A stretch of 19,664 nt of DNA, from IMG/VR virus record IMGVR_UViG_2667527633_000005; one strand, written 5' to 3'. The DNA is from a virus. Its lineage: Duplodnaviria; Heunggongvirae; Uroviricota; Caudoviricetes. This document shows, one piece after another, positions 1 through 19,664 of the stretch (positions are counted from its first letter, which is position 1; each line of letters starts with the position of its first letter). The position numbers were made by a program, and so were the translations under genes. The notes beneath the pieces were generated by a model that worked only from the letters and a program-made list of their open reading frames with translations, made no database searches and was not told where the DNA came from.

Positions 1-177
1 CTACCNNNNNNNNNNTACTTTTGCGCCTCCCAGCCGGACCGGCGCTGCGGCGTAATACGCGGCAATTTCACCAATCCAGCCGGTCAGCCTTTCCCGCTGC
101 TCCTGACTGTTCGCGCCCAGAATAAAATCCATCGCTGACTGCGTATCCAGCTCACTCTCAATGGTGGCGGCATACAT
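1..177 (-). CDS. hypothetical protein, 5' portion only (runs off window start; N-run 6..15 inside)
   Basis: Minus-strand frame opening with ATG at 177..175 (MYAATIESELDTQSAMDFILGANSQEQRERLTGWIGEIAAYYAAAPVRLGG...). Absent from the ORF track because there is no stop in the window. No family recognised. Confidence 0.3.
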   Translation of the reverse strand: MYAATIESELDTQSAMDFILGANSQEQRERLTGWIGEIAAYYAAAPVRLGGAKVXXXX

Positions 178-257
178 CGCCTTTATGAAAAGACAGGAAA
201 AAATAAAATTTAAAAACAGTACATTACGAATGCTCAGACCTATCGTTTAAAGGAGTC

Positions 258-279
258 GCAATACACACTGCAATACACG
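258..279. repeat. left copy of 21-bp direct repeat gcaatacacaCtgcaatacac (two tandem GCAATACAC half-sites); candidate att/arm-type site at left island end
   Basis: Matches 10950..10970 (gcaatacacaTtgcaatacac) at 20 of 21 positions; a further GCAATACACA copy lies at 10920..10929 beside the integrase start. Confidence 0.45.
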
Positions 280-312
280 ATTATTTATAAGATGAGCGGC
301 ATCCGTCATAAA

Positions 313-551
313 GCTGGTGGATGCTTTTTCTATGCATATATGCACAGTTTTAGTGGGCGTTAATGTCGATATAGGGATCCCCATATCGAGATTGGATACC
401 TGGCTTTTTTCCGGTTAACCTTTAATCAGGCTGGTGGGCTTTACCTGTTTTGTATGAGTGGTCATCATGACCATGTCATAACAAAAACCCCATATTCGTG
501 GTTTTTCTGTGTCGGGCTATTCTGTCGTTGCTGTGCTGATTTGGCTGGTGG
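313..551 (+). other. cluster of three Chi octamers 5'-GCTGGTGG-3' in one orientation (313..320, 430..437, 544..551)
   Basis: Exact octamers read directly from the sequence within 240 bp of non-coding DNA; palindromes GTCGATATAGGGATCCCCATATCGA (367..392) and GGTCATCATGACC (461..473) lie between them. Confidence 0.75.
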
Positions 552-617
552 GCTGAATCATCATTACGGCGATGCAGCTATGTAGACGTTCCGGCCTCCT
601 CAAATTGAGGATTGTGG

Positions 618-778
618 AAGAATCAATGGGTTAGTCTTACTTTCCCGACATCCCCCAATGGGGGTTTTCGAAACAATCAATAGCTTAGGCTTACTTCCCC
701 GATTTCCTGCATTGCAGGTTTTCGAAATAATCAATGGGTTAGGCCATCGTGCAATTTTGCACTTTGCCAGCCAGCGCA
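618..778 (+). repeat. tandem ~55-bp repeat array (about 2.5 units), each unit with ATCAATGGGTTAG..CTTACTTCCCGA plus a short GC-rich hairpin followed by TTTTCGAAA
   Basis: Units begin near 622, 678 and 731. Hairpins: CCCCCaatGGGGG (about 652..668), CCTGCattGCAGG (706..718), GTGCAAttTTGCAC (759..772). A second repeat family GCCAGCGCAAT..CGCGTTATC occurs near 768..795 and 955..984. Confidence 0.6.
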
Positions 779-992
779 ATGTCGCGTTATCAGTCCTCAG
801 ATGTGAGGGATGTAGCCAGCTTTTCCCCCAGTGGGGGATATCCAGCACCGACGGCTTAACTGTGCGTGCCAGCACAAGGTAGCCTTGAACTACTTACTGC
901 ATCCCATCTTACAGGCCGTGCCTTCCTGCTTAACTTTTTGCAATGCAACAAGTCAGCCAGCGCAATTTTGCGTTATCGGGAATATCAGCAAG

Positions 993-1274
993 TTACCGCC
1001 GCAATCGTTCCGGCTTCTTCCACTGGTAAGTATTTTTCGCGCTCTCCCTCCGTTGTTGAGAACGGCGACGATATGCCAGCAACTCAAGGACTCTTGTTCG
1101 TATGTTGCGCATATCCACGCCGTTAAGCTCAATACCGTCACGGCGCATCACCTCAGCCACTACACGCACATAATTATCTGCGGTCACGCTGTCCGGCTGC
1201 GTGGCCTGTTCGTCATGCTGCTTGCTGATTCCACAAGCACGGCGGATTAATCGCAGTATTTCGGATTCAGTCAT
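993..1274 (-). CDS. hypothetical small protein (93 aa) with arginine-rich C-terminus
   Basis: ORF with ATG at 1274, directly downstream of the terS-like gene on the same strand; C-terminus RRRSQQRRESAK..KKPERLRR suggests nucleic-acid binding. Weak RBS, no family recognised. Confidence 0.4.
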   Translation of the reverse strand: MTESEILRLIRRACGISKQHDEQATQPDSVTADNYVRVVAEVMRRDGIELNGVDMRNIRTRVLELLAYRRRSQQRRESAKNTYQWKKPERLRR

Positions 1275-1356
1275 AGCGTACTACGTTACTTATCTTTATT
1301 CGGCTGCAACTTATCCGGTACGTTTCCGGCAGTTTCCATCAGATAATCGGACAGCA

Positions 1357-1827
1357 TCAGCGGTATGTTTTCGTCAAGTTTTGCGCATGCGTTACAGGCT
1401 CTGATAACTTCTTTTTCAGTCCATCCAGCATAGACGGCTTCATGTCGGGAAACTTCCTTGTCATGGCAAGCGGCAGGCTGTCCATGATTGAAGAAATCTG
1501 ACTCGCCAATTTTGAAAGCACGTATATACAAAACGCTGTATCAATAACGTCGCCGCGTTCGCGCTCGTTTTTAAGCTCCTGCGCCTCTGCCTGTGCTGTC
1601 AGCAATCTGATCCTGACTCGTAGGAGTTCATCATCATCAATCTCGCCTTTGTCGTCTGTAATCTGGTTAATTGCATTGCTAACCCGATTGTCTATTACGC
1701 TGGCAACATCATAAAACGCCTCGCGGCCTTTACGTTCAACGGGAGTCACTCCCCACTTGTCGAACGCTGTCGCACTTACACGGCAGCTTTGCGCCATGTT
1801 TTTTTTGTTCATCAGGTGCGATTTCAT
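1357..1827 (-). CDS. terminase small subunit, phage lambda Nu1-like
   Basis: LLTAQAEAQELKNERERGDVIDTAFCIYVLSKLASQISSIMDSLPLAMTRKFPDM aligns with lambda Nu1 (..RLTRAQADAQELKNARDSAEVVETAFCTFVLSRIAGEIASILDGLPLSVQRRFPEL) as I recall it. Start placed at ATG 1827 (GGGGA RBS 5 nt upstream); the track ORF begins at GTG 1839. Lies about 135 bp downstream of cosN, as in lambda. Confidence 0.85.
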   Translation of the reverse strand: MKSHLMNKKNMAQSCRVSATAFDKWGVTPVERKGREAFYDVASVIDNRVSNAINQITDDKGEIDDDELLRVRIRLLTAQAEAQELKNERERGDVIDTAFCIYVLSKLASQISSIMDSLPLAMTRKFPDMKPSMLDGLKKKLSEPVTHAQNLTKTYR

Positions 1828-1939
1828 CAATATCCCCACTTAAGTAATGTTTCAGGTTGGTGTATTGGCTTTATCTTTTCCTTTTTATTCATAGAGATAG
1901 AGCGAACAACAAAACCACCACCAGCACCCGAAAAAGGCT

Positions 1940-1990
1940 CATAAATAGCGAAAACCCGCGAGGTCGCCGCCCCGTAGCCTACCGGATCGC
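1940..1990 (-). other. lambda-type cohesive-end site (cosN core = reverse complement of 1961..1972, GGGCGGCGACCT, plus conserved flank)
   Basis: Minus strand reads ..ACG GGGCGGCGACCT CGCGGGTTTTCGCTATTTATGAg.., matching the lambda left-end/cosN sequence from memory; positioned immediately upstream of the Nu1-like gene. Confidence 0.8.
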
Positions 1991-2028
1991 CGGAAAGGAC
2001 CCGCCAGCCAGAACGGGCCCTAATTTCA

Positions 2029-2412
2029 TCAACCAATCAACTTATAGCGACCATCCCGTGCATTGCGACGTACACGCTCAATCTTGAGGCATAGCGCCGC
2101 ATCTGGCTTTTTTGGGACAGGTACGCGGCAATATTCAGAAGATCGAGGAATATTGTTTATCCAGTCGATCACTTCACTTAAATACCAGGCCTTACGCCCT
2201 TCCGTAACCTGCACACGCTCCGGGAACTCTCCACTAGCCTCAAGGTTTAGCAATGTGCGACGGCTAAGGGTAGTAAGTTCCATCACCTGATTCATATCAA
2301 CAAGGCGTTCACTTAAACGCATTTTGTCAGCAATAGCCTTTAATTCCTCTACTGCTGGATCCGGATACATCATTTCGGCAATTGGCTTAAGGTCATTGTA
2401 ATGATTCTGCAT
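2029..2412 (-). CDS. AlpA/excisionase-like HTH regulator (127 aa)
   Basis: Central segment MELTTLSRRTLLNLEASGEFPERVQVTEGRKAWYLSEVIDWI resembles the AlpA/Xis-type winged HTH; GGGGGA RBS 4 nt before ATG 2412; sits between the decoration gene and cos. Confidence 0.55.
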   Translation of the reverse strand: MQNHYNDLKPIAEMMYPDPAVEELKAIADKMRLSERLVDMNQVMELTTLSRRTLLNLEASGEFPERVQVTEGRKAWYLSEVIDWINNIPRSSEYCRVPVPKKPDAALCLKIERVRRNARDGRYKLIG

Positions 2413-2423
2413 TGTATCCCCCT

Positions 2424-2765
2424 TTACACACGAGCCAGCGGCTGAACAGAAATACCTGAGCCAACAAACGCGGCAACCTTTGCCGACAGTTCTTTTACAG
2501 ACTCAGGCCAGTTCAGAGCATCAACATTTAAAACACCTGTCTTATAAACCTGTGCCTGTGTTTTTTTCGCTGTGTCGATTTGTACAGCGGAAACATAAAC
2601 CGCTTTACCTACGCTCGAACCATCCCATACCACCAGTGCACCTGTTGCATCTTCCTGCATCAGTGGCGTAAATGCAGGAATTACCCCTTTATTAGCTGAA
2701 AATATCCCCAGCGTAGTCACCAGTGCTTCAGTGCCAGCCATGAGTTCAGTGTAATGAGTAGCCAT
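2424..2765 (-). CDS. head decoration protein, phage lambda gpD-like
   Basis: TPLMQEDATGALVVWDG..VYKTGVLNVDALNWPE..AAFVGSGISVQ parallels lambda gpD (TPLMLDTSSRKLVAWDG..FYKSGTFRYEDVLWPEA..TAFAGTAISIV, from memory); GGGGGAG RBS overlaps the stop of the upstream capsid gene. Confidence 0.8.
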   Translation of the reverse strand: MATHYTELMAGTEALVTTLGIFSANKGVIPAFTPLMQEDATGALVVWDGSSVGKAVYVSAVQIDTAKKTQAQVYKTGVLNVDALNWPESVKELSAKVAAFVGSGISVQPLARV

Positions 2766-2774
2766 TGCTCCCCC

Positions 2775-3815
2775 TTAGCCAATGCGAACGGTAACAAAAC
2801 GATTGATGCGGGCCGGTATTGGCTGTGGTGCTGAATGTGTCTGCACATATTCAATAGCCGGATCACCAGGCACAATATAGTTTTTCGGTGCAAGTTCGGC
2901 TTTAGTCAGCCCCATTCGGATTAGCTCCGGATCCTGAATACCGCCATAGGCGACAATCCCCTGAAGAGCCGTATTGCCAAGCACCATCAAATCAGGATCA
3001 AGGAAATGTTTTTCTGTTCCGTCCTCGTCGGTATAACGCCCGCTGTAAACAACAATCGCAACATCGCCCATATACCCTTTAAAACTCACCGAATCACCAA
3101 GGTCTTTAAGGGCCGTTTCCAGTTCGGAATTAGAACCACGACGGGTATCCAAAGCCTCTTTTATCGCTCTGAATGAACGGTATTTCTTCCATACATTACC
3201 ACCCATAATGATGATATTAGTGACGCCCTCACTAAATTCTGCGTAGCTCTCAATATCATCATTTGGATCAAAAGTTTCTTTATCCTTACCTGACCACTCA
3301 GTACCGCCAGACTGAGTGATGATATTTTGTGGTTTTATATTCCAGTCCAGCTCATAACGTTCAATACCATCGCCCTCAATGATATTTTTCCCCGTTGTGA
3401 TTGCCTGAACAGCAAGCCATTCAATACGTGCACGAATAGCTTTAGCCTGATTTACAATCGCCTGTTTAACTTTAATATTACGTGCCCCAAAAGCATTGTA
3501 TTGCTCAGGTGATACACCAGCAGGGCGCACAGCTAACTTATTTGGATCAATGCTGCTTTTCGGCTTCATATAGCCTGGACGAATTGTTTTTGATTCGTAC
3601 CCTTCGTCACGTGAAACTTTACTACCCACCATAGGAGAACAAAACGCTGCAATTGGGATATTTGGATCGTCGATTGTATCAAGAATAATATCGCGCGATT
3701 CAAACATTACCGAGCGAGTAAAAAACAAACTGGTAAACAACGCATTTAGTTGTTTTTGTACATCTACAGCATTAACCACCTGTACAAGCTGAGTAGGCGA
3801 ATATAAATCAACCAT
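2775..3815 (-). CDS. major capsid protein, phage lambda gpE-like
   Basis: Long collinear match to lambda gpE, e.g. NIITQSGGTEWSGKDKETFDPNDDIESYA..YRSFRAIKEALDTRRGSNSELETALKDLG..YMGDVAIVVYSG..MVLGNT. Start set at ATG 3815 (AAGAGG 6 nt upstream; aligns with the gpE N-terminus); the track ORF extends to 4028, but a stable hairpin at 3990..4020 argues against that extension. Confidence 0.85.
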   Translation of the reverse strand: MVDLYSPTQLVQVVNAVDVQKQLNALFTSLFFTRSVMFESRDIILDTIDDPNIPIAAFCSPMVGSKVSRDEGYESKTIRPGYMKPKSSIDPNKLAVRPAGVSPEQYNAFGARNIKVKQAIVNQAKAIRARIEWLAVQAITTGKNIIEGDGIERYELDWNIKPQNIITQSGGTEWSGKDKETFDPNDDIESYAEFSEGVTNIIIMGGNVWKKYRSFRAIKEALDTRRGSNSELETALKDLGDSVSFKGYMGDVAIVVYSGRYTDEDGTEKHFLDPDLMVLGNTALQGIVAYGGIQDPELIRMGLTKAELAPKNYIVPGDPAIEYVQTHSAPQPIPARINRFVTVRIG

Positions 3816-3989
3816 ACGCATCCTCTTTGCATTCATTAAAAATAATTGTGGATATATGCTACCACCGATATTTGTCATGCGAACACATGCAACCGAGTGC
3901 AATGTTGTATAAAGTTTTGGGGTGACAACTTCAGTGCGGACAATTAGTGTTAATATCTTCACTCCCTTTGGTCGGGATTTATGTAGCAT

Positions 3990-4020
3990 GCCGGAAAATT
4001 TATTTTTTCCGGCCTTTTTT
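3990..4020 (+). terminator. intrinsic-terminator-like hairpin (GCCGGAAAA-tttatt-TTTTCCGGC followed by a T-run), plus-strand orientation
   Basis: Perfect 9-bp stem 3990..3998/4005..4013 with T6 at 4015..4020, in the gap between the SSB-like stop (4032) and the capsid gene; on the minus strand it is a hairpin without a U-tract. Confidence 0.4.
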
Positions 4021-4031
4021 ATTGGCAATAT

Positions 4032-4481
4032 TTAAAACGGGATATCATCTCCCCATTGCTCATTATCTCCCACTGGTGGCTGGCTTCCTTGCTGATCTGC
4101 CTGTTGTTTTGCTCTGTTCAGTTCGTCAGTAGCCTGCCCCTGTTGGCCTTTTTTGCCGCCCGGTCGCGCCGTTCGCGCACTGATTACGCTGTCTGCGATA
4201 ACCTGCCAGCCCCGCCGCGTTTCGCCGTTCTGGCCTGTCCACTGGCTTACCTGCATGTTACCCGCCACGCTCACCAGTTCGCCTTTGTGGTGTTTTGCCA
4301 GTGCGTCGGCCTGTCTGCCAAACGCCAGGACGGATAACCACATCGTCGCCGTTCCGTCATCTGCCTGGCTGCACGGCAGGGGAACCGCCATACTCGCCAT
4401 CGCCATTTGTGTCCCTTTGCTGGTGGTCTTTAACTGCGGGTCAGCCACCAGCCGCCCGTAAGCCGCTATCTGTGCTGTCAT
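4032..4481 (-). CDS. single-stranded DNA-binding protein-like (C-terminal acidic DDIPF tail)
   Basis: Ends ..NEQWGDDIPF, the hallmark SSB C-terminal tail, preceded by a Gly/Gln-rich linker and an N-terminal domain compatible with an OB fold; overlaps the upstream ORF by 4 bp. Confidence 0.65.
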   Translation of the reverse strand: MTAQIAAYGRLVADPQLKTTSKGTQMAMASMAVPLPCSQADDGTATMWLSVLAFGRQADALAKHHKGELVSVAGNMQVSQWTGQNGETRRGWQVIADSVISARTARPGGKKGQQGQATDELNRAKQQADQQGSQPPVGDNEQWGDDIPF

Positions 4482-4792
4482 GCTGTCTGCTCTCCGGTTT
4501 TAACATTGATGGTTGTCACCTGTTCCGCTTCGGCAATCTCCCGTTCTGTCAGCGTGGCAAAGTTTGCCGCTGCTGTGGTCATGAATGCGCTTATCAGGTC
4601 GGGATGTTCCTTCGCGTATCCTGCCCGTGTGTGGTGGTCTATCGCTTTGATTGCCACCTTTAAGGAAAGCTCTGTCATGTCTAACGCTTTATATTTTGCC
4701 TGTGTTCTGTCTCTGCGAATTTTGGTCATTTGTCGCCCCTGATTCATGTTTTCGGCTGGCATGTTTATTAAGTGATTTTTATGTATGCGCAT
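4478..4792 (-). CDS. hypothetical protein (104 aa; start uncertain, several in-frame ATGs)
   Basis: ORF immediately downstream of the iteron origin and translationally coupled to the SSB-like gene; no family recognised. Confidence 0.45.
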   Translation of the reverse strand: MRIHKNHLINMPAENMNQGRQMTKIRRDRTQAKYKALDMTELSLKVAIKAIDHHTRAGYAKEHPDLISAFMTTAAANFATLTEREIAEAEQVTTINVKTGEQTA

Positions 4793-4843
4793 TTATTTTC
4801 ACCCCCCCCTCGTTTAAAAAGTTTTTAGTTGTGCCTCCCCCCC

Positions 4844-5061
4844 TCTACCCATCTACCCGAATGCTCATCATGTCAGTAATGGCGCGGCTTTCAGCGGGTA
4901 GATAGCTTTTTGACTCCTCTACCTGCCGTCTACCCTGCTACCTGAAACTGATAAAATCAGGTAGAAGAGGTAGAGAGCTTTTATTAGCCTTCTACCTAGC
5001 CCTATACCCACTTATCATGTTGAATAATATGCGTTTATTTTGTTCAGGTAGATGGGGTAGA
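4844..5061. repeat. iteron array (TCTACC forward, GGTAGA inverted; at least 10 copies) with adjacent AT-rich DNA: putative replication origin of the island
   Basis: TCTACC at 4844, 4852, 4918, 4929, 4991; GGTAGA at 4897, 4960, 4969, 5047, 5056 (pairs spaced 8-11 bp); AT-rich stretches at 5018..5045 and 5066..5090; immediately 3' of the primase/helicase gene. Confidence 0.6.
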
Positions 5062-5077
5062 TGGCTTTTACAAAAAA

Positions 5078-6832
5078 TTATAAAAACGCGTCGCAATCGT
5101 CTGTTGTAATTGCGTTGGTCTGCGTTACTCCCTTAACTTTTCGCGTAATATATTCATGCCCGTAAACTTTCGCCGCTGGCTTCATGGCCTTGCTGAACTC
5201 AGCCACGTTTAGCGGTTTGCTCCTGCCCGCGTATGCCATAAACGCCAGATAGACGCGGTAAAGGCTGTTCCTGGTCGTGTACTTCACTGAATCACCACCG
5301 CCACCCATCATCAGGCCGCGCGCTTCCTCCAGAAAATTCAGGAACTGGCAAAACTCAATAACCGGATCCGTCTGTTGCTTTATTGCCAGTGCTTCATCAC
5401 CGTCACGCTGTTCCAGTAGTAAAGCCCGTGCCTTCTCAGGGTCGGTAAAGTTCGCCAGCAATCGGCGGATAATAACGGGGATTTCAGCCGCAATCTTTTC
5501 CGGTAGCTCCCTGTCTTTTTCGGCCTCACTGACGATATTGTCGAAACGGAAAATCACGCGACGACGTGCCACACCTCCGGCCCGTTCGGTGAATATCATC
5601 GGGTTGTTGTTGGTCGCCAGCACCACCGCCCTGATTACCGCCGTGAAACGCTTTTCATATTTCGGGTTAATTTCCACGGGGTCGCCGCCTGTGATTTTCT
5701 TGATGCCCGTTCCTTCGCCTGTATATTTCGGCTGGTCAGCCAGGACGATAAGACGACTCCCGACAACCTGCGCACGTCCACCAGCATCATCAAGCGATGT
5801 CATTTCAGCGCTTACCGTGTTCTGTTTCCCTGCCAGAAGGCTGGCTATGTGTGTGAATGTACTTTTACCGCTCCCGCCGTCTCCGGTGGCCTCAATAAAC
5901 ATCTGCCAGTCGTACCGGTTCGCCATAATCATGTACAGCGCGGCACATATACGCATCATCTTGCGCGGGTCTTTTCCGGCTGCGTGCTCAAGCCATTTAT
6001 GAAAGTTTGGCGCGTTATCGCGGATGTTCTCCCCTGGTGCTGGTGGCGTGTACTCAATGCCGTTGTGCGTGGTGATCCAGTTCTCCGGCGTGTGCGGGGA
6101 AAATTCCCCCGTTTTCAGGTCAAGCGCACCATTGGCGAACGGCAGCAAATCGCCAGACGGCTCGCCCATTGGTTCGGCAATAACTTTTAACGCTTCCACG
6201 GCGTTATTGATTACGCGCTTGCTGAAAGTGGCCCTGTGCTCTGAATAGATCGCCACCATTTCGCGGCTAAGTTCCATTGTGCTGACCGGACACCATACCC
6301 CGCCGCGCCATACGTGAACGATTTCACTTTCAGGATGTACGCAAACGCCATCAAAGCGATCGGCAAGCAACTGCGCGCGCTCACTGTCCGCCATCTGCGA
6401 AAGTTGCGCCTTTTGCTTTACCGGAAGCTCAATGACCAGACCATCAGAAAGATTCTGGCGTTCACGGGCCAGATATTCGCGCCAGTTCTGCACCTCCTGG
6501 CCGTGCATACCCTCAGGATAAAAATTTGCATCCTGTACGCCTGCTGCCGCCAGCTTCTGACCAATCGCCTTTATCATTACAGGCGCAAGATATCCGGCCC
6601 TGTATATGCGTGCTGATTTTCGGCCTTCCGGCACAATTTGCAGATTATCCAGTTCGGATAGCTGCTGCTCCCCAAGCCACACAGGAGGCTCATTATCTCC
6701 GGCCATACGCGCATCATGTTCCTGCCATTGTTTCGCGTGTGCCCAGGCATCACTACCCGCAAAAATAATGACTTCTGTTCCTTTGTGTTTTATGCCGCGT
6801 GACTGCTGTTTTACGTTCGGTGCCAGTTTCAT
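5078..6832 (-). CDS. P4-family primase/helicase (Pri-Rep-like replication initiator)
   Basis: 584-aa ORF with Walker A IEATGDGGSGKSTFTHIASLLAGK and a C-terminal region typical of phage/plasmid P4-type primase (D5_N/SF3 helicase-like); the position (small ORFs, pri, then iteron ori) matches satellite replication modules. Confidence 0.9.
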   Translation of the reverse strand: MKLAPNVKQQSRGIKHKGTEVIIFAGSDAWAHAKQWQEHDARMAGDNEPPVWLGEQQLSELDNLQIVPEGRKSARIYRAGYLAPVMIKAIGQKLAAAGVQDANFYPEGMHGQEVQNWREYLARERQNLSDGLVIELPVKQKAQLSQMADSERAQLLADRFDGVCVHPESEIVHVWRGGVWCPVSTMELSREMVAIYSEHRATFSKRVINNAVEALKVIAEPMGEPSGDLLPFANGALDLKTGEFSPHTPENWITTHNGIEYTPPAPGENIRDNAPNFHKWLEHAAGKDPRKMMRICAALYMIMANRYDWQMFIEATGDGGSGKSTFTHIASLLAGKQNTVSAEMTSLDDAGGRAQVVGSRLIVLADQPKYTGEGTGIKKITGGDPVEINPKYEKRFTAVIRAVVLATNNNPMIFTERAGGVARRRVIFRFDNIVSEAEKDRELPEKIAAEIPVIIRRLLANFTDPEKARALLLEQRDGDEALAIKQQTDPVIEFCQFLNFLEEARGLMMGGGGDSVKYTTRNSLYRVYLAFMAYAGRSKPLNVAEFSKAMKPAAKVYGHEYITRKVKGVTQTNAITTDDCDAFL

Positions 6833-7128
6833 TTTTTACCTCTGAATCCGTTAATCATGGTTTTCATTTTCTGGATATTTCCCCACGCTTTTTCCCTGCT
6901 GATGGGCTTACTGCGGGGTGCGGCATATACCAGGGGAAAATCACGCCGGAACTGATAAACAGGCATCACGCAGTCATAGCTATACCCCTCACGGCGGTAA
7001 GTGATGCGCCGTTCTGCCACGCCTTTAATCGTTACCGTGCCGCCGTATTTATCGCGGTAAATATCGCCGTTCATAAATTCAGGTCGAGCGGGGCCGCTGG
7101 CAATAAAGCCAGAATTTTTCATTTCCAT
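6829..7128 (-). CDS. hypothetical protein (99 aa)
   Basis: ORF overlapping the primase start by 4 bp (coupled); no family recognised. Confidence 0.5.
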   Translation of the reverse strand: MEMKNSGFIASGPARPEFMNGDIYRDKYGGTVTIKGVAERRITYRREGYSYDCVMPVYQFRRDFPLVYAAPRSKPISREKAWGNIQKMKTMINGFRGKK

Positions 7129-7145
7129 ATTATTTATTCCTCGAC

Positions 7146-7367
7146 TTAACTCGACTTATTTGATAGCAGGGCACTATTTATTGCGTCATTGAGTTTTTCT
7201 GCTGATTCATCAATAAGTGACAACAGGCCATAAGCAATATTTGCATCTTCATTGTCATTTATGCAATCAAGCCACATATTTAATATTGCTTTTGCTGAAT
7301 TATTTAAAGTTAATGAACTTTCTGCACATGCTAACAATTTAAAAAAGACTTCCCGTTCTGTATTCAT
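7146..7367 (-). CDS. hypothetical protein (73 aa), encoded in a visibly AT-rich segment
   Basis: ORF in the same operon string; local base composition is much more AT-rich than the flanking genes. Confidence 0.4.
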   Translation of the reverse strand: MNTEREVFFKLLACAESSLTLNNSAKAILNMWLDCINDNEDANIAYGLLSLIDESAEKLNDAINSALLSNKSS

Positions 7368-7559
7368 TTAATCCCCCACCAGCTTACTTTCTTCCTCAAT
7401 CAAAAAACTAGCGACACTTCCCGAAAGACGCGCCAGTAGGCTCGCCAGTGCGGATATATCAGCATCTGTAATTTTGTTCGGGTATACCTCAAGAAGGCGG
7501 CAAATAATTTCTGTCTGGTGCGCACGTTCAGCGGCTTCGTGTAATGTAATTTCCTGCAT
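7368..7559 (-). CDS. hypothetical protein (63 aa)
   Basis: ORF abutting its neighbours with no gap (7367/7368; shares nt 7559 with the upstream ORF). Confidence 0.4.
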   Translation of the reverse strand: MQEITLHEAAERAHQTEIICRLLEVYPNKITDADISALASLLARLSGSVASFLIEEESKLVGD

Positions 7560-7744
7560 TAATGCACCTCTTTTAATTCATACACTGCTGAAATAATGAC
7601 TTGTGATAAGCCATATTCTGATGATTCGCTTCTCACCGCAGCAATAGCCGTCTGAACATTAACAGCCTTCACATTCTGAGCGATACCAATTGTGTGGCCT
7701 ATTGGGTTAACAGCTCGGGCAAATACACGGAAGGTTTTAAGCAT
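7559..7744 (-). CDS. hypothetical protein (61 aa), first gene of the leftward operon
   Basis: ATG at 7744 preceded by GGGAG (6-nt spacer); lies immediately downstream of the divergent control region. Confidence 0.45.
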   Translation of the reverse strand: MLKTFRVFARAVNPIGHTIGIAQNVKAVNVQTAIAAVRSESSEYGLSQVIISAVYELKEVH

Positions 7745-8025
7745 GACTCACTCCCTGGCGGATTTTTGCAGCGAATACAGCAACACAACCGGACGGGCAA
7801 CGGCTACGCGCTTCGCGTTCCGTCCAGGCGGTTACGTGGATGATTTGAGATTCTCCGGCACTCAGTGCCAGAAAACGCCACACAAAGGCCGTTTGTGTGT
7901 GTACAAGGTGTGGTATATGATTTACAGCAACCATAACGGCTCCTAGTTTACGTTGTTGGTTAGACGCCCCGTATGTGTTCCCAGCACTGCGGGGCGTTGC
8001 TCTTTGTATTTCAACAATCCTTTCG

Positions 8026-8103
8026 GTGTGTTTCATGTTATGAGCGCATGAAACACACGTCAAGGCTTTTTGTATTTCTTTTTTTGTGTATACTGAAACA
8101 CAC
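8026..8103. promoter_or_regulatory. operator-like sites in the divergent control region: GTGTGTTTCATG-N9-CATGAAACACAC (8026..8058) plus a third TGAAACACAC (8094..8103) overlapping a TATACT -10-like hexamer (8089..8094)
   Basis: Perfect 12-bp inverted repeat read directly; located 20-100 bp upstream of the RHH gene start (8125, AGGAG RBS) and within the 380-bp gap separating the two divergent transcription units. Confidence 0.5.
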
Positions 8104-8124
8104 CGATGATTAGGAGTTTCAGAA

Positions 8125-8430
8125 ATGGCAACGGCTAACAAAAACGCAAAATCACAACTGACAACTGTCAGAGTCCCACTAGATGTTATGCAAGGGATGG
8201 AATCCGTTAAGCTGGACGGTGAAAGCAATGCCGGATTTATCGTAACCGCCATGCGCGGAGAAATAGCCCGCCGCCAAGCAGAAGGCAGCGGAGAAAATCC
8301 CCTTGTGTCGTCACTGGATGCCCTGGCTAAGGTCGAACAAATCGGCATCAAAGCAGCCGAGGAGATCGGGCAACTCGTCACCGTCGCGCGTGAAGAACTC
8401 CAGCGACGCAAGGTCAAAGAGCATGAATAG
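8125..8430 (+). CDS. ribbon-helix-helix (CopG/Arc-like) DNA-binding protein; candidate island repressor
   Basis: N-terminal LTTVRVPLDVMQGMESVKLDGESNAGFIVTAMRGEI has the strand-helix-helix pattern of RHH regulators; strong AGGAG RBS; transcribed opposite to the main island operon. Confidence 0.55.
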   Translation: MATANKNAKSQLTTVRVPLDVMQGMESVKLDGESNAGFIVTAMRGEIARRQAEGSGENPLVSSLDALAKVEQIGIKAAEEIGQLVTVAREELQRRKVKEHE

Positions 8431-8487
8431 CCAATATCAGCGCCATAGTTTGAGGAACGCAGGCGCATTGCTTTACAGGACAGCACC

Positions 8488-8667
8488 ATGAGCGACACAG
8501 AATCAACCAAAACACCATCACCAACTCGTAAGAGACGACGCAAAAATATAGCGCATGAACATGAATCAGAAAGATTCGCACCTTGTTCGTTTGCTCTTGA
8601 GAAATTCCTTAAAGAGCACAGGAAAAAGCTCTCGTTGCAAACCTTGGAACGAACCAAATCTGACTGA
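8488..8667 (+). CDS. hypothetical small basic protein (59 aa)
   Basis: ATG 8488 to TGA 8665..8667 (MSDTESTKTPSPTRKRRRKNIAHEHESERF...), below the ORF-track length cut-off; follows the RHH gene and precedes a strong terminator. Confidence 0.4.
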   Translation: MSDTESTKTPSPTRKRRRKNIAHEHESERFAPCSFALEKFLKEHRKKLSLQTLERTKSD

Positions 8668-8733
8668 TCACATTGCCCACCAGCCGCAAATGTGGCATTG
8701 TTGGTGATGCTTTTGTTTTCCCTTGTTCCCACT

Positions 8734-8765
8734 GGCGACCCTTTTGCGGTCGCCTTTGTTTTGTC
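8734..8765 (+). terminator. rho-independent terminator (GGCGACC-cttttgc-GGTCGCC followed by TTTGTTTTGTC)
   Basis: 7-bp GC-rich stem with T-rich tail, read directly; placed between the convergent plus-strand pair and the Bro-N gene. Confidence 0.6.
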
Positions 8766-9342
8766 ACTGAATGCGGTTACCAAAGTAAAACTCAGGCTGA
8801 TATTCACGTATCAGCGTTTTTTCTTCTTCCTCCAGCTCACGCTTTTTGCGCTTACATGCCTGTAGCTCCCTCCCCTTCTCGCTGGCACTTATTTGATATT
8901 GCTCTTTACGGCGGGAAAAATCCTGTAATGCACCCCACGGGATACCATAAGTCCCCGTTTTTCTGATACCTGGTATCACATTTCTGAATACCCAGTTACT
9001 GAAACGATGAGCAAATGTGCCAGGCGTCGTTGCTTTGCGGCTGCGGGCTATTAGTTTGTAGAAACCTGACTCAGAGATAATTCTCATATTCTGATTTCCT
9101 CCTGGGGTGTAAGTTAAATTTACTCCCTTTTCATCATCATCAAGCATCTGCAACGCCGTACGCGAATTGGTTAGTTCCAGCGCAGCACAAACATCTTTTG
9201 CAACAAACCACGGATCGCCGTTCAGATACACCACACGAACGTTCACACTATCAAAGCGCAGAACGACGAGATCACGAATATCGCAGAATTTTTTCACTGG
9301 ACGAGCGTACCCCTTGCCCGTCACGGCAATATTTTTATTCAT
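8764..9342 (-). CDS. Bro-N domain protein (phage antirepressor-like) with coiled-coil C-terminus
   Basis: N-terminal region (..NGDPWFVAKDVCAALELTNSRTALQMLDDDEK..) is typical of Bro-N/AntA DNA-binding domains; C-terminus is charged and heptad-like (RELQACKRKKRELEEEEKTLIREY). Confidence 0.75.
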   Translation of the reverse strand: MNKNIAVTGKGYARPVKKFCDIRDLVVLRFDSVNVRVVYLNGDPWFVAKDVCAALELTNSRTALQMLDDDEKGVNLTYTPGGNQNMRIISESGFYKLIARSRKATTPGTFAHRFSNWVFRNVIPGIRKTGTYGIPWGALQDFSRRKEQYQISASEKGRELQACKRKKRELEEEEKTLIREYQPEFYFGNRIQ

Positions 9343-9362
9343 CGCGTTTTTACCTTATAGAC

Positions 9363-9385
9363 AAAAAACCCCTCGTGATGAGGGG
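9363..9385 (-). terminator. rho-independent terminator on minus strand (CCCCTC-gtgat-GAGGGG; U-tract from the A6 run 9363..9368)
   Basis: Hairpin 9369..9385 directly downstream of the alpA stop (9399), followed on the minus strand by six U. Confidence 0.5.
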
Positions 9386-9398
9386 CATTATTTACTGG

Positions 9399-9656
9399 TT
9401 ATTGCTGTTTTGTTTTTCCAGGTTTCCATCCAGGATGCCACTCACCACGGATCCATGCCTGAACCTCTGAAAGTCGATACCCTGCAGCACGTTCACCGAT
9501 CTTGATACGTCGCGGGAATTTACCTGCCTGCTCCATTTTCCAGCGTGTTGAGTTTGCCAGCGTGGTAAGTGCTATGCACTCTTTTTCACGAATGAACCGA
9601 TCAATGTCCTTCATTGTGCGCAAATCGTTTTCATCAACAAGAGAATAAATTGCCAT
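9399..9656 (-). CDS. alpA: AlpA-family transcriptional regulator / excisionase-like protein
   Basis: 85 aa; ..CIALTTLANSTRWKMEQAGKFPRRIKIGERAAGYRLSEVQAWI is typical of AlpA (prophage CP4-57 regulator family); start is 2 bp after the integrase stop. Confidence 0.85.
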   Translation of the reverse strand: MAIYSLVDENDLRTMKDIDRFIREKECIALTTLANSTRWKMEQAGKFPRRIKIGERAAGYRLSEVQAWIRGEWHPGWKPGKTKQQ

Positions 9657-9657
9657 A

Positions 9658-10899
9658 TCACACCACCTCTTTATTAAGCTCGATAACGTTGTTGTTAAAT
9701 CCTGCTATCGTATTAAGGTAATTAACCCACATATTAAGCACCTCAAGTTTTTTCTTTATATGCCTGCTTTTATTGTAAACACCAGCAACCCCTTTCACTT
9801 TATGACCTAAAAGAAGTTCGACAATATAAGGATCCGCCCCCATATCATTAAGCGTAGTGGAAAATGTGCGCCTGAAATCATGTATGCACCACAAGCCATT
9901 AGTATCATGACCAAGACGCCTGCATATTCTGTTTGCAGCCCCTGTTATTGTCGCCCTTTGCAAAGCACAACCGACAACATAACCGCGATTTTTTGTTTCT
10001 GCGTAAAGATTAACGATCCATTGTTTTATTCCGTCAGGAACAGGCCTTACTATAGCCTCCTTGTTTTTGCTGTGCTCTTTTGGGACTGTCCATACCCAGT
10101 TTTTTAAATCCCATTCGTCCCAGGTGGATAGCCTCGCCTCCTGCTGTCGGCAACCAAACACCAGGCAGATAACCATTATTCTTCGGTTATATATTGATGA
10201 CAGAGTTAGCAAATTATTACCGTAAGCATAAGACCATACATCAGCGGTTTCATTGATATTAAGAACGCGATCCCTTATACCGGATGAGCGCCCGACATAA
10301 CTTACGTTAATATCTCCAAAGGGATCGCACGCGATGTATTGCCTGACGCGACAAAAACGCAACGCCTGTTTGATATCAAGAAAAATTGCACCAGACATAA
10401 CAGGCGCATTTTTTTTGATCCTGTCAAAGACGGTAAGCCATGTGTGTAATTTGCACTGTTCTATAGCCATATCACCGATATAGGGGAAGATATGCTTTTC
10501 AAATCGTTTTATTAAATATTCATGCTCTTTTCTGGCTGTTGTGGCGTGATTGTCGTACCAGTAAAACAGCGCATCCCTTACGGTCACTGGTTGCATAGTT
10601 TTTTCGGCAGCAAGTTTTATTTGCCTGCGGGGGTCCAGATTTTCAGCCAGCCATTCACGGCACTGATCACGCATGCGCCTGGCCGTTGCAAGAGACATGT
10701 CAGGATAGCGACCAAGTGTAAGCCATACCGGAGGGGATTCCCTGCCACCAAGACGATAGTAAAAAACAAAGCTGATCCCCCCAACCATGCTTACACGCAC
10801 AGACAACCCGCGCCCATCCGCTATTGTTTTTTGTTTGTCCTGCCGTTTTCCGACAAGACTCTTTAACAGTTTGTCACTGAGTTTGTTTTCAATAGCCAT
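9658..10899 (-). CDS. int: tyrosine site-specific integrase, P4-type
   Basis: 413 aa; N-terminal arm-binding-like region (LSDKLLKSLVGKRQDKQKTIADGRGLSVRV..FYYRLGG); C-terminal catalytic motifs HDFRRT..LLGH..GVY; GAGGG RBS 7 nt before ATG 10899. Confidence 0.95.
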   Translation of the reverse strand: MAIENKLSDKLLKSLVGKRQDKQKTIADGRGLSVRVSMVGGISFVFYYRLGGRESPPVWLTLGRYPDMSLATARRMRDQCREWLAENLDPRRQIKLAAEKTMQPVTVRDALFYWYDNHATTARKEHEYLIKRFEKHIFPYIGDMAIEQCKLHTWLTVFDRIKKNAPVMSGAIFLDIKQALRFCRVRQYIACDPFGDINVSYVGRSSGIRDRVLNINETADVWSYAYGNNLLTLSSIYNRRIMVICLVFGCRQQEARLSTWDEWDLKNWVWTVPKEHSKNKEAIVRPVPDGIKQWIVNLYAETKNRGYVVGCALQRATITGAANRICRRLGHDTNGLWCIHDFRRTFSTTLNDMGADPYIVELLLGHKVKGVAGVYNKSRHIKKKLEVLNMWVNYLNTIAGFNNNVIELNKEVV

Positions 10900-10919
10900 T
10901 AAAAGCCCTCAAGAGATTT

Positions 10920-10970
10920 GCAATACACACCCATCCCGATCGCCAATTTGCAATACACATTGCAATACAC
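10920..10970. repeat. right copies of the GCAATACACA repeat (10920..10929; 21-mer gcaatacacaTtgcaatacac at 10950..10970); candidate attR/arm-type or AlpA/Int operator sites
   Basis: Direct repeat of 258..278 (20/21 identical); located in the integrase promoter region. Confidence 0.45.
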
Positions 10971-11174
10971 AAAACCGCGAAAAACTGGAAGGGTGATGAA
11001 CGGTCATCAAAAGCATGGAAAACGACATTCCAGACGCAGCAAGGGTTTCAGTGGAGTTGGCGAACGATGCGGGCAACTACGGTGAGATGATAGACATAAA
11101 TCGCCTTCACAATGGCGCTCTGCAGCTGCGTGTTCTGCAGCGTGTCGAGCATCTTCATCTGCTNNNNNNNNNNT

Positions 11175-15720: not shown

Positions 15721-16254
15721 ATGAACGTAAAAATCAGATACGGCCTGTCGGCTGCCGTTCTGGCACTGATTGCCGTCGGTGCGCCTGCGCCTGATATTCT
15801 CGACCAGTTTCTGAATGAAAAAGAAGGTAACCACACAACGGCATACCGCGATGGTTCCGGCATCTGGACCATCTGTCGGGGTGCCACGGTGGTGGATGGA
15901 AAACCCGTTTTTCCCGGTATGAAACTGTCGAAGGAAAAATGCGACCAGGTTAACGCCATTGAACGGGATAAGGCGCTGGCATGGGTGGAGCGCAATATTA
16001 AAGTGCCACTGACCGAACCACAGAAAGCGGGTATAGCGTCATTTTGTCCCTATAACATTGGCCCCGGTAAGTGTTTCCCGTCGACGTTTTATAAGCGGCT
16101 GAATGCCGGTGATCGTAAGGGTGCATGCGAGGCGATTCGCTGGTGGATAAAAGATGGTGGGCGCGATTGCCGCATACGTTCAAATAACTGCTATGGACAG
16201 GTTATTCGTCGTGACCAGGAAAGCGCATTAGCCTGTTGGGGGATAGATCAGTGA
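15721..16254 (+). CDS. SAR endolysin (phage 21 R / DLP12 RrrD-type lysozyme)
   Basis: N-terminal signal-anchor-release segment [13 protein letters not shown]; catalytic E-D-T region [20 protein letters not shown]; overall near-identity to RrrD-type lysozymes from memory. Confidence 0.9.
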
Positions 16255-16718
16255 GCAGAGTCGCCGCGATTATTTATGCTCTGGTTATCTGCATCATCGT
16301 CTGCCTGTCGTGGGCGGTCAATCATTACCGTGATAACGCCATCGCCTACAAAGAACAGCGTGATAAAAAAGTCAGTGAGCTGAAGCAGGCGACCGCCACC
16401 ATTACTGACATGCAGCAACGCCAGCGTGCTGCTGATGTACTCGATGCTAAATACACGAAGGAGTTGGCTGATGCGAAAGCTGAAAATGATGCTCTTCGGC
16501 GCAAGCTTGATAATGGTGGTCGGGTGCTCGTCAAAGGAAAATGCTCTGTGCCATCCTCAGCCGAAACCTCCAGCGCCTCCGGCATGGGCAATGATGCCAC
16601 CGTCGAACTCTCTCCAGTTGCTGGACGAAACGTTCTCGATATCCGGGACGGAATTATCCGCGACCAAACAGCACTGAGAACGCTTCAGGAATACATTAGG
16701 ACGCAATGCCTTCGATGA
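16251..16718 (+). CDS. rz: Rz i-spanin
   Basis: GTG 16251 overlaps the endolysin stop (GTGA); N-terminal [19 protein letters not shown], then a coiled-coil periplasmic domain (..[20 protein letters not shown]..) and C-terminal Cys; the track ORF starts at TTG 16236. Confidence 0.85.
16471..16677 (+). CDS. rz1: Rz1 o-spanin lipoprotein, embedded in the +1 frame of Rz
   Basis: [19 protein letters not shown] (lipobox VVGC) followed by a proline-rich segment [11 protein letters not shown]; fully inside Rz, the classic embedded arrangement. Confidence 0.75.
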
Positions 16719-16873
16719 TAGCGATAATTTTACTCATCATCCTTCACATCTGGCTCTGTAGNNNNNNNNNNCCTGTCACGCCCGGATTTTTTACAGGCGT
16801 TACCTCATTTTCATCTTTTTCATTCACTGCTCGCTGACGACAGTTACGGGCAGATTATCCATAAGGAACAGGT

Positions 16874-17509
16874 ATGAAATTACTCATCACAGCGGCGCTG
16901 GTCGCCAGTCTCAGCATTATCTCAGCGCCCCCGGTCCTCGCTGAAAATATCGTGGGTTCAGTCAGAACCTGGAAGTCCATGCAGGCAGATGGCTGGAAAT
17001 CCGCTGATGGATACGATGATAACCATATGCATAACGCACTCTATCAGGCGGTTGTACTCGACAATTATCCCTGGACGAATCACTTTTTTCTTCGCAGCAG
17101 AGATGGAGGCTCGCTTTATCTGGCAGACAAAAAATCCCTGACGGTCAGATACATTGATATAAAACCCCGTGACGAATATCCGCTACATCTCCGGATTATT
17201 TATCAGGGCAATAATGAAGGACAGGGCTGTTATTTCGCTGTCGTTGATGACCGGATGGCTAACTACTGGACAGCCGTTGAAGACAAGCTGCTCTACCAGT
17301 ATCCCGCCGTTGAAAATGTTGATGAAAAAGCGGCTGAACTCAAAAAACAGTTCACGCCGGAAGTCATGATGATGGTAAAGGACAATTGTGTTAACAAACG
17401 GCAGCAGGCAGCGCTTGCAGCCCGGCGTACTGAAAAAGACAGGGAACTGCAACAGTGGGTGGCACAGCAGAGTCTTGCTGAGCTATGCCGTCGTACCGGT
17501 AACTGCTGA
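16874..17509 (+). CDS. exported hypothetical protein (cleavable signal peptide)
   Basis: MKLLITAALVASLSIISAPPVLA-ENIVG.. signal peptide; 211 aa; AGGAACAGG RBS; no family recognised. Confidence 0.6.
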   Translation: MKLLITAALVASLSIISAPPVLAENIVGSVRTWKSMQADGWKSADGYDDNHMHNALYQAVVLDNYPWTNHFFLRSRDGGSLYLADKKSLTVRYIDIKPRDEYPLHLRIIYQGNNEGQGCYFAVVDDRMANYWTAVEDKLLYQYPAVENVDEKAAELKKQFTPEVMMMVKDNCVNKRQQAALAARRTEKDRELQQWVAQQSLAELCRRTGNC

Positions 17510-19160: not shown

Positions 19161-19664
19161 ATGAGACTGTCTCACTGTATTCTCACCGCAGCCATACTGG
19201 CTTCCGCGTCAACAGCCCATGCCCTGCCCAATATGTGGACCAGCGGATTTGGTCAGGGCGTGACCGAATATATCATTACCAGCCCGGATAAGGTGGTATT
19301 TAATCTGAATTGTACTGGCAATCCGGATGCGCAGAATATTCTGCAACACAGCGTCTGGCTCACCCTGCCTGATGGCACTTCCGTCAATTCCAGCGATGAC
19401 GGAACAGAGATAACGGTCGTCATGGATAACAGCCAGTACCCCTTACCGTCATTCCTTGGCTGGCGAAACGGTGACAATGCCTGGGTGTCATTTATTAATG
19501 CGCTGAGTCAGGCTGCGAATTTTGATGTTTACGTCAACGATAAAAAAGTTGGCTCCTTTAGGGAAGGTGCGAATAAGCGGGGAAATTCTTCTCGGCTGAC
19601 TCAGTCATTTCATTTCTTCATNNNNNNNNNNCTATGTACAGGCTCCATCAAGGGTAAAGCGTGA
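19161..19664 (+). CDS. exported hypothetical protein (signal peptide); 3' region interrupted by N-run 19622..19631
   Basis: MRLSHCILTAAILASASTAHA-LPN.. signal peptide; the frame passes through the N-run, so the C-terminus and stop are unreliable. Confidence 0.45.
   Translation: MRLSHCILTAAILASASTAHALPNMWTSGFGQGVTEYIITSPDKVVFNLNCTGNPDAQNILQHSVWLTLPDGTSVNSSDDGTEITVVMDNSQYPLPSFLGWRNGDNAWVSFINALSQAANFDVYVNDKKVGSFREGANKRGNSSRLTQSFHFFXXXXLCTGSIKGKA

Follow-up and report, generated by a model that had tools for sequence, protein, structure and literature searches.

We analysed a 19,664-nucleotide stretch of DNA (IMG/VR virus record IMGVR_UViG_2667527633_000005; the whole stretch is called the window below) that contains a phage satellite, and within it a run of small open reading frames (ORFs) that leads into a replication primase gene. 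The order along the operon is Icd-like, orf61, orf63, orf73, orf99 (RgdR), Pri and then an iteron origin. The Icd-like gene (7737-7934, minus strand) encodes 65 aa and matches NF033153, the NCBIfam model of Icd-like host cell division inhibitors, with 63.7 bits against a cut-off of 25. Four ORFs follow on the same strand, each with an ATG start: orf61 (7559-7744, 61 aa, phrog_3672, mildly basic), orf63 (7368-7559, 63 aa, phrog_1478, acidic with a net charge of -6), orf73 (7146-7367, 73 aa, a divergent AT-rich allele of phrog_2196, net charge -6) and orf99 (6829-7128, 99 aa, RgdR/DUF4222, net charge +11, isoelectric point 10.1). Pri (5078-6832, minus strand) has 584 aa and carries D5_N and DUF5906, P4-family primase C-terminal domain, and just past it, at 4845-5060, lies a cluster of CTACCY iterons. 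The four small ORFs are probably the second to fifth genes in the early operon, the replication module, of an EcCI-type Gram-negative phage-inducible chromosomal island (PICI), a reading carried by the gene identity, synteny, coupling and coding constraint that we observed.

The genes are tightly packed. The Icd-like gene and orf61 overlap by 8 nt (ATGCTTAA), orf61 and orf63 overlap by 1 nt (TAATG), orf63 and orf73 abut directly with zero spacing (TAAATG), orf73 and orf99 are separated by 17 nt, and orf99 overlaps pri by 4 nt (ATGA, 6829-6832). A Shine-Dalgarno-like purine run stands 6-10 nt before each of the four ORFs, and we saw no strong terminator between orf61 and pri. An earlier reading of this DNA, made from the letters alone (the sequence-only reading), had described four tightly coupled minus-strand ORFs running into the primase gene, and we confirmed both the coordinates and the junctions. 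It had also placed the start of the run at a divergent promoter, but the Icd-like ORF comes first and overlaps orf61. Its statement that none of the four belongs to a recognised family turned out to be wrong: orf99 matches Pfam DUF4222, and orf61, orf63 and orf73 match PHROGs 3672, 1478 and 2196 with E-values of 1e-28 to 9e-46, although these three families are functionally unannotated.

Judged by gene content and layout, the element around the operon is an EcCI-type Gram-negative PICI, in the sense of Fillol-Salom et al. (PMC6092414). It has int, alpA and pri/rep, with the iteron origin downstream of pri, and its size of ~10.8 kb between two portal-gene fragments falls within the PICI range of about 10-15 kb. 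The only late genes in it are those for a capsid protein, a decoration protein and a TerS-like protein; tail and lysis genes are absent. Pri is 98% identical to the Pri of the related island EcCICFT073, and its C-terminal part shares 40% identity with P4 alpha across 434 aa. Of the 17 CTACCY sites that the window contains, 11 are packed, in both orientations, into the 216 bp that separate pri from its neighbouring ORF; this cluster is the PICI-type iteron origin, and its layout agrees with the PICI ori description in PMC6092414. Over-expression of AlpA in EcCICFT073 leads to pri-dependent replication, which then runs uncontrolled so that viability falls (PMC6092414). Since AlpA triggers that replication, the operon in the window is presumably turned on at induction as well. 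Helper-dependent induction and transfer have been demonstrated for EcCICFT073 and EcCIEDL933 only.

We compared the operon with 12 other islands, namely Sakai Sp7/OI-51 (EcCIEDL933 type), EcCICFT073, eight further E. coli islands picked at intervals along the similarity ranking, one island from Shigella and one from E. albertii. All 13 islands have an Icd-like gene, then one to four small ORFs, then a DUF4222 gene and then a replicase with a 4-nt overlap (the replicases of the Shigella and E. albertii loci are unannotated and are our own ORF calls). The annotated replicases differ in type, some being primase family proteins (with D5_N and DUF5906 in the case of the window) and others DUF927 proteins or RepA helicases. 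The RgdR family stands directly before the replicase in 13/13 islands regardless of replicase type, and the overlap of the rgdR stop with the replicase start (ATGA) is kept whichever type follows. The conserved C-terminus of RgdR (FRGKK) also encodes the ribosome-binding site of the replicase; together with the constant ATGA, this means that the rgdR/replicase junction may be a boundary at which modules are exchanged by recombination. EcCICFT073 (the prototype Gram-negative PICI) and EcCIEDL933/Sp7 (the prototype capsid-forming PICI) share with the window island, and in the same order, alpA, divergent ylcI/ynfO, the Icd-like gene, small ORFs, rgdR, a replicase, the ori and SSB. They differ from it in that CFT073 has four small ORFs whose families are partly different, the Sp7 replicase is of the DUF927 type, and the orf73 allele is private to the window island. 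The identity of the operon is thus largely known, as the PICI early operon ending in rgdR-pri, and what we have here is another combination of alleles.

What changes from island to island is the middle of the operon. When we searched a 1122-bp query with megablast, most related genomes matched only at its rgdR and Icd-like ends, with the middle replaced. Counted as complete E. coli genomes with a match, out of 5426, some part of the query (mainly the two ends) was present in 1318, the DNA of orf61 in 386, that of orf63 in 282 and the orf73 allele of the window in 130. DNA identity to Sp7 is about 95% over the Icd-like gene, orf61 and the beginning of orf63, identity to CFT073 is about 91% over rgdR and pri, and the stretch around orf73 is not matched closely in either. 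The island is a mosaic, with an Icd-like/orf61 end like that of Sp7, an rgdR/pri end like that of CFT073 and its private orf73 allele in between. The variable slot of other islands holds tandem paralogues, fusions and chimeras of phrog_2512, phrog_5146 and phrog_340 (L007 3032-3478, L012 3258-3623, L013 2926-3144), which points to frequent recombination inside the cassette.

The last small gene, orf99, is the best characterised by homology. It matches Pfam PF13973 (DUF4222) over residues 16-67 with 81.3 bits against a cut-off of 27 (E 3.7e-23), and over 99 of 99 residues it is 72% identical both to RgdR (ECs1581) and to CFT073 c1493. We found 384 related protein clusters, and almost every one of the 120 listed has a length of 99 aa. 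By these matches orf99 is an RgdR-family (DUF4222) protein. RgdR itself, 99 aa long, is a product of O-island 51 / Sp7 in E. coli O157:H7. It is an activator of LEE1 and of type III secretion, represses motility, binds DNA with no sequence specificity and depends for its activity on residue 20 and K35 (PMC3378721). The NCBI pipeline labels the O157 allele "prophage regulator RgdR". Like RgdR and c1493, orf99 is the last small gene and overlaps the replicase start, and in addition to the shared length, full-length alignment and DUF4222 match it retains K35 and the invariant G21-D22. It differs from them in its first 19 residues, at positions 70-83 and at residue 20, which is N, giving NGD where the O157 protein has the RGD tripeptide. 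Among the RgdR relatives of the other islands residue 20 is R, N or P; the RGD motif characterises the O157 allele and not the Pfam family. For RgdR, the ratio of non-synonymous to synonymous substitution rates (dN/dS) is 0.26-0.50.

We also looked at the predicted structure of orf99. The AlphaFold model, built from an alignment of 61 sequences, has a mean predicted local confidence (pLDDT) of 73, with 88-90 in the core. Its N-terminus is disordered, residues 23-68 form a small barrel of five strands, and residues 78-96, towards the C-terminus, form a basic helix. The predicted barrel is of the Tudor/SH3-like kind and can be likened to the C-terminal domain of UvrD/PcrA, to the RID of CarD (Tudor-like, RNA-polymerase-interacting) and to KOW domains, a generic similarity of fold. 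A sequence search of the PDB with orf99 gave no match.

orf73 occupies the AT-rich patch at 7146-7367 that the sequence-only reading took for a separately acquired insert. The patch is real. The gene has a GC content of 0.32, and 0.23 at third codon positions (GC3), its neighbours have GC contents of 0.41-0.53, and only 2% of the 222-nt windows across the whole window are equally AT-rich. A recent foreign insertion would account for this composition, for the rarity of the allele (130 genomes, when the operon anchors are in 1318) and for the phmmer search of 1.8 billion representative proteins, which retrieved only orf73 itself and repetitive, low-complexity proteins. However, orf73 hits phrog_2196 (E 1e-28), and so do its counterparts at this position in other islands. 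Among the 11 clustered islands, 10 have a phrog_2196 gene immediately before rgdR, and so does the Shigella locus, which makes 11/13, and in all 11 of these islands the gene has a GC content of 0.32-0.41, when most other operon genes are at 0.42-0.58. Low GC is therefore a trait of the gene family in that slot and not the mark of an island-private insert. The junctions of orf73 show no flanking repeats or extra sequence, and its spacing to orf63 is zero. We consider a recent foreign insert very unlikely. Allelic replacement by mosaic recombination in a conserved slot fits better, and it is the allele, just 33% identical to ECs1580, that is unusual, not the presence of the gene. Within the family, dN/dS is 0.16-0.71 overall and 0.16-0.33 for moderately diverged pairs.

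For ORFs this short, the possibility that some are chance reading frames that are not translated has to be weighed, most of all for orf61, which has just 10 protein clusters, all near-identical relatives, in a database of 5.8 billion sequences and is 97% identical to its Sp7 counterpart. A survey of related loci returned two loci, of which the one from E. albertii gave a divergent homologue. This homologue is also 61 aa long, has 49% identity with no indels, sits in the equivalent slot and retains the ATGCTTAA overlap; the differences at codon positions 1, 2 and 3 are 19, 22 and 42. orf63 matches phrog_1478 with an E-value of 2.5e-34, is 78% identical to ECs1579 (dN/dS 0.30) and 55% identical to a 76-aa ORF of CFT073, and has 42 protein clusters, of which those with a source name come from Escherichia or Shigella. 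dN/dS was below 1 in every pair for which we could compute it (orf63, the orf73 family, RgdR and Icd-like). In the related genomes that we examined, RefSeq annotates the small ORFs as coding sequences. Frames that are kept at 49-55% amino-acid identity and at equal lengths, with third-position bias and with conserved Shine-Dalgarno motifs and start/stop overlaps, make chance frames extremely improbable, and the codon-level comparisons support coding for all four ORFs. The sequence-only reading had named a lack of conservation in related islands as the outcome that would speak against it; the ORFs are kept in those islands and carry coding-type substitution patterns, so this objection falls away.

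As to what the small proteins do, the sequence-only reading suggested helper manipulation or anti-defence, which would make them cargo effectors that disable proteins of the helper phage or of host immunity. Several observations are in line with this: between the Icd-like and rgdR anchors there are one to four ORFs from several unrelated families, with tandem paralogues and fusions; the proteins are tiny and mostly acidic, as many phage inhibitor proteins are; and a tblastn search with orf99 and orf61 found no match in 50,697 bona fide phage records. The variable gene content of this interval is compatible with fast-evolving accessory functions. On the other hand, PADLOC profiles run against the four ORFs and the Icd-like protein gave no family at E-values up to 1, orf99 has no match among the sequences of solved structures, and the predicted similarities of fold are generic. 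For orf61 the predicted fold is a plain β-β-α-β arrangement, and a BFVD fold search returned only uncharacterised phage proteins, all with E-values above 1e-3. Furthermore, the orf73 family and RgdR occur in nearly every island and always at one position, unlike cargo, and what is known of RgdR is a pleiotropic control of host transcription, not interference with a helper (PMC3378721). We regard cargo effectors as a possible explanation for the four ORFs, but one that we lean against. Pairwise hhalign probabilities between the small-ORF families did not exceed 1.5%, although with such shallow profiles this is a weak test of whether they are related to one another. In the PICI papers that we consulted we found no tested function for the operon's small genes beyond the LEE and motility effect of RgdR; the Mol Cell 2019 PICI paper does not mention rgdR or the locus tags c1489-c1493, and the preprint on capsid-forming PICIs does not mention rgdR or "small ORFs".

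The Icd-like gene at the head of the operon raises another option, in which the whole operon is an abortive-infection or superinfection-exclusion module that is triggered by a phage protein and arrests the cell through the Icd-like protein, the small proteins and runaway replication. Silas et al. (bioRxiv 10.1101/2023.04.06.535777) report a precedent in a prophage locus of ECOR61, where six linked genes including an Icd-like gene and a DNA primase bring about programmed cell death on expression of the phage accessory gene orf24, and where the cells no longer die once the Icd-like gene is removed. The loss of viability that accompanies runaway replication of EcCICFT073 under AlpA over-expression points the same way. 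But the Icd-like protein of ECOR61 has a long N-terminal extension that is absent from the window protein, neither the four ORFs nor the Icd-like protein matched PADLOC, and the growth arrest could be a mere side effect of satellite induction. We think an abortive-infection module is unlikely. The window Icd-like protein is 97% identical to ECs1577, and dN/dS for the gene is 0.12-0.29. We also considered a C4/CI-type antisense RNA beside the Icd-like gene, as in P1 and P4, and rejected it after Rfam searches gave no match at the gathering score across the window and none at E-values up to 5 in 6700-9700.

The sequence-only reading had drawn its functional suggestion partly from P4. The comparison stands as far as position and layout go: the P4 left operon (the kil/'cI' region, epsilon, orf151, cnr, alpha) likewise puts small regulatory or helper-directed genes before a P4-family primase. 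It does not extend to the proteins, since cnr, epsilon, ORF151 and the 'cI' ORF have no significant similarity to the four ORFs, and blastp found no homologue of epsilon, ORF151 or cnr among them. P4 cnr, which has the position before alpha equivalent to that of rgdR, was considered as an RgdR homologue and dropped; it is a DUF5375 protein and had no blastp match. A similarity between the N-terminus of P4 ORF151 and the DUF4222 core (29% over 48 aa, E 0.25, no Pfam match) was not significant.

The control region lies between the Icd-like gene and a divergent gene of the YlcI/YnfO family (8125-8430, plus strand, 101 aa, NCBIfam NF041551, E 1.6e-17). The sole promoter-like site on the operon strand is TTGACG-17-TAACAT at 8063-8035 (minus strand). 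Around it we found three copies of the 10-mer TGAAACACAC, at 8026-8035 (inverted), 8049-8058 and 8094-8103, two of which extend to a 13-nt inverted repeat (8023-8035 / 8094-8106). Six other islands also have three sites at equivalent aligned positions, with a sequence that is particular to each island, and the sequence of the N-terminal strand of YlcI/YnfO varies between islands in parallel with these operator-like repeats. CFT073 and strain PKF11 (sites in L003 and L014) have identical YlcI and identical repeat sites. This pattern suggests that YlcI/YnfO and the repeats are a candidate island-specific repressor-operator pair; whether Gram-negative PICIs have a repressor at all was called unclear in PMC6092414. 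Just upstream of the operon in islands L007, L008 and L010, ylcI is replaced by an Ash-family or N-terminally extended Icd-like pseudogene. A GC-rich hairpin with no U-tract (7966-7996, minus strand) lies in the 5' leader of the operon transcript and is present in 9/10 aligned islands, with compensatory changes at 2/11 pairs. A terminator-like hairpin inside the Icd-like gene (7879-7899) was discarded, as it showed no covariation and is broken in two islands.

On the reading that the four ORFs belong to the PICI early operon, we would propose the following course of events. A helper phage would induce the island through AlpA, and a sigma-70-like promoter in the 7935-8124 intergenic region, flanked by the island-specific operator-like repeats and facing YlcI/YnfO, would drive the operon as one polycistronic mRNA; co-transcription and repression by YlcI are both things we infer here. 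Through the overlapping stop and start codons, synthesis of the primase would be translationally coupled to that of the small proteins. orf99, very basic and by homology a non-specific DNA binder, may act as a modulator of host transcription, with orf73 as a conserved acidic companion that is nearly always beside rgdR. orf61 and orf63 would be the variable part of the cassette, satellite-specific and most likely binding host or helper proteins, although any molecular target of orf61, orf63 or orf73 is likewise a matter of inference.

A number of points weigh against this account. RgdR has R at residue 20 and the R20N change in ECs1581 lowered the activation of type III secretion (PMC3378721), so orf99, with N20, may differ in host-regulatory activity. 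The literature casts RgdR as an accessory virulence regulator. RgdR alleles do not track the replicase type (Pri, DUF927, RepA) or the phrog_2196 allele, which argues against tight, specific partnerships of RgdR with either the replicase or orf73. The roles given to orf61, orf63 and orf73 are guesses because these proteins have no characterised homologue.

A more ambitious version goes further. The interval between the Icd-like gene and rgdR would be a hotspot in which satellites of enterobacteria exchange tiny satellite-specific effectors (orf61, orf63, phrog_340/2512/5146) that act on host or helper targets, phrog_2196 and RgdR, an acidic and a basic partner present almost everywhere, would form a core takeover module, and YlcI/YnfO would be the PICI repressor, working through the triple operators. 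RgdR would then dock on RNA polymerase through its predicted Tudor-like barrel and would not be a virulence accessory. We put this forward as speculation and consider it unlikely.

Runs of ten Ns at 6-15, 11164-11173, 16762-16771 and 19622-19631 show that the window was strung together from unconnected pieces, with the satellite confined to 16-11163. This piece is 98.7% identical to its nearest relative, the ~10.8-kb element of E. coli CFSAN018748 (CP028192), where the element splits the portal gene of a lambdoid prophage into fragments at 4601-5374 and 16220-17101 of the extracted locus (L001), with the genes concerned all on one strand. The ends of the satellite piece in the window (17-177 and about 11048-11163) align to these portal-gene fragments. 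As the two halves of the portal gene flank the satellite, it is a helper-embedded PICI with the portal gene as its target. Mageeney et al. (PMC10111431) described the helper-embedded configuration, and their example Eco567.11capE is likewise a ~11-kb PICI with its own capsid gene inside a late gene of a lambdoid prophage, although the target there is the capsid gene; small ORFs are uncharacterised in that paper. In addition to int, alpA, BRO-N, the divergent YlcI/YnfO gene and the operon, the satellite has beyond pri a small ORF and genes for SSB, the major capsid protein, the decoration protein, a helix-turn-helix (HTH) protein and the TerS-like protein. A second AlpA-like HTH protein of 127 aa is encoded at 2029-2412, within the packaging module, and recalls the second alpA copy described for EcCIMP1. 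The remaining pieces of the window hold chromosomal genes (lipocalin, 2-thiouracil desulfurase/DUF1722) and lambdoid lysis genes.

The practical outcome is modest, as we have an ordinary allele combination of a known operon and nothing that indicates a new kind of system. DNA of the conserved ends of the operon occurs in 1318 of the 5426 complete E. coli genomes. The loose ends of interest are RgdR and its acidic neighbour as core factors, the partners of the variable proteins, and YlcI/YnfO as a PICI repressor. The variable small ORFs offer a compact candidate set of host- or helper-binding proteins, and the pattern of operators and YlcI is a concrete candidate for how these islands are silenced. 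Should RgdR turn out to serve the satellite as a core factor, the effects of O-island 51 on virulence would follow only secondarily from the biology of the satellite.

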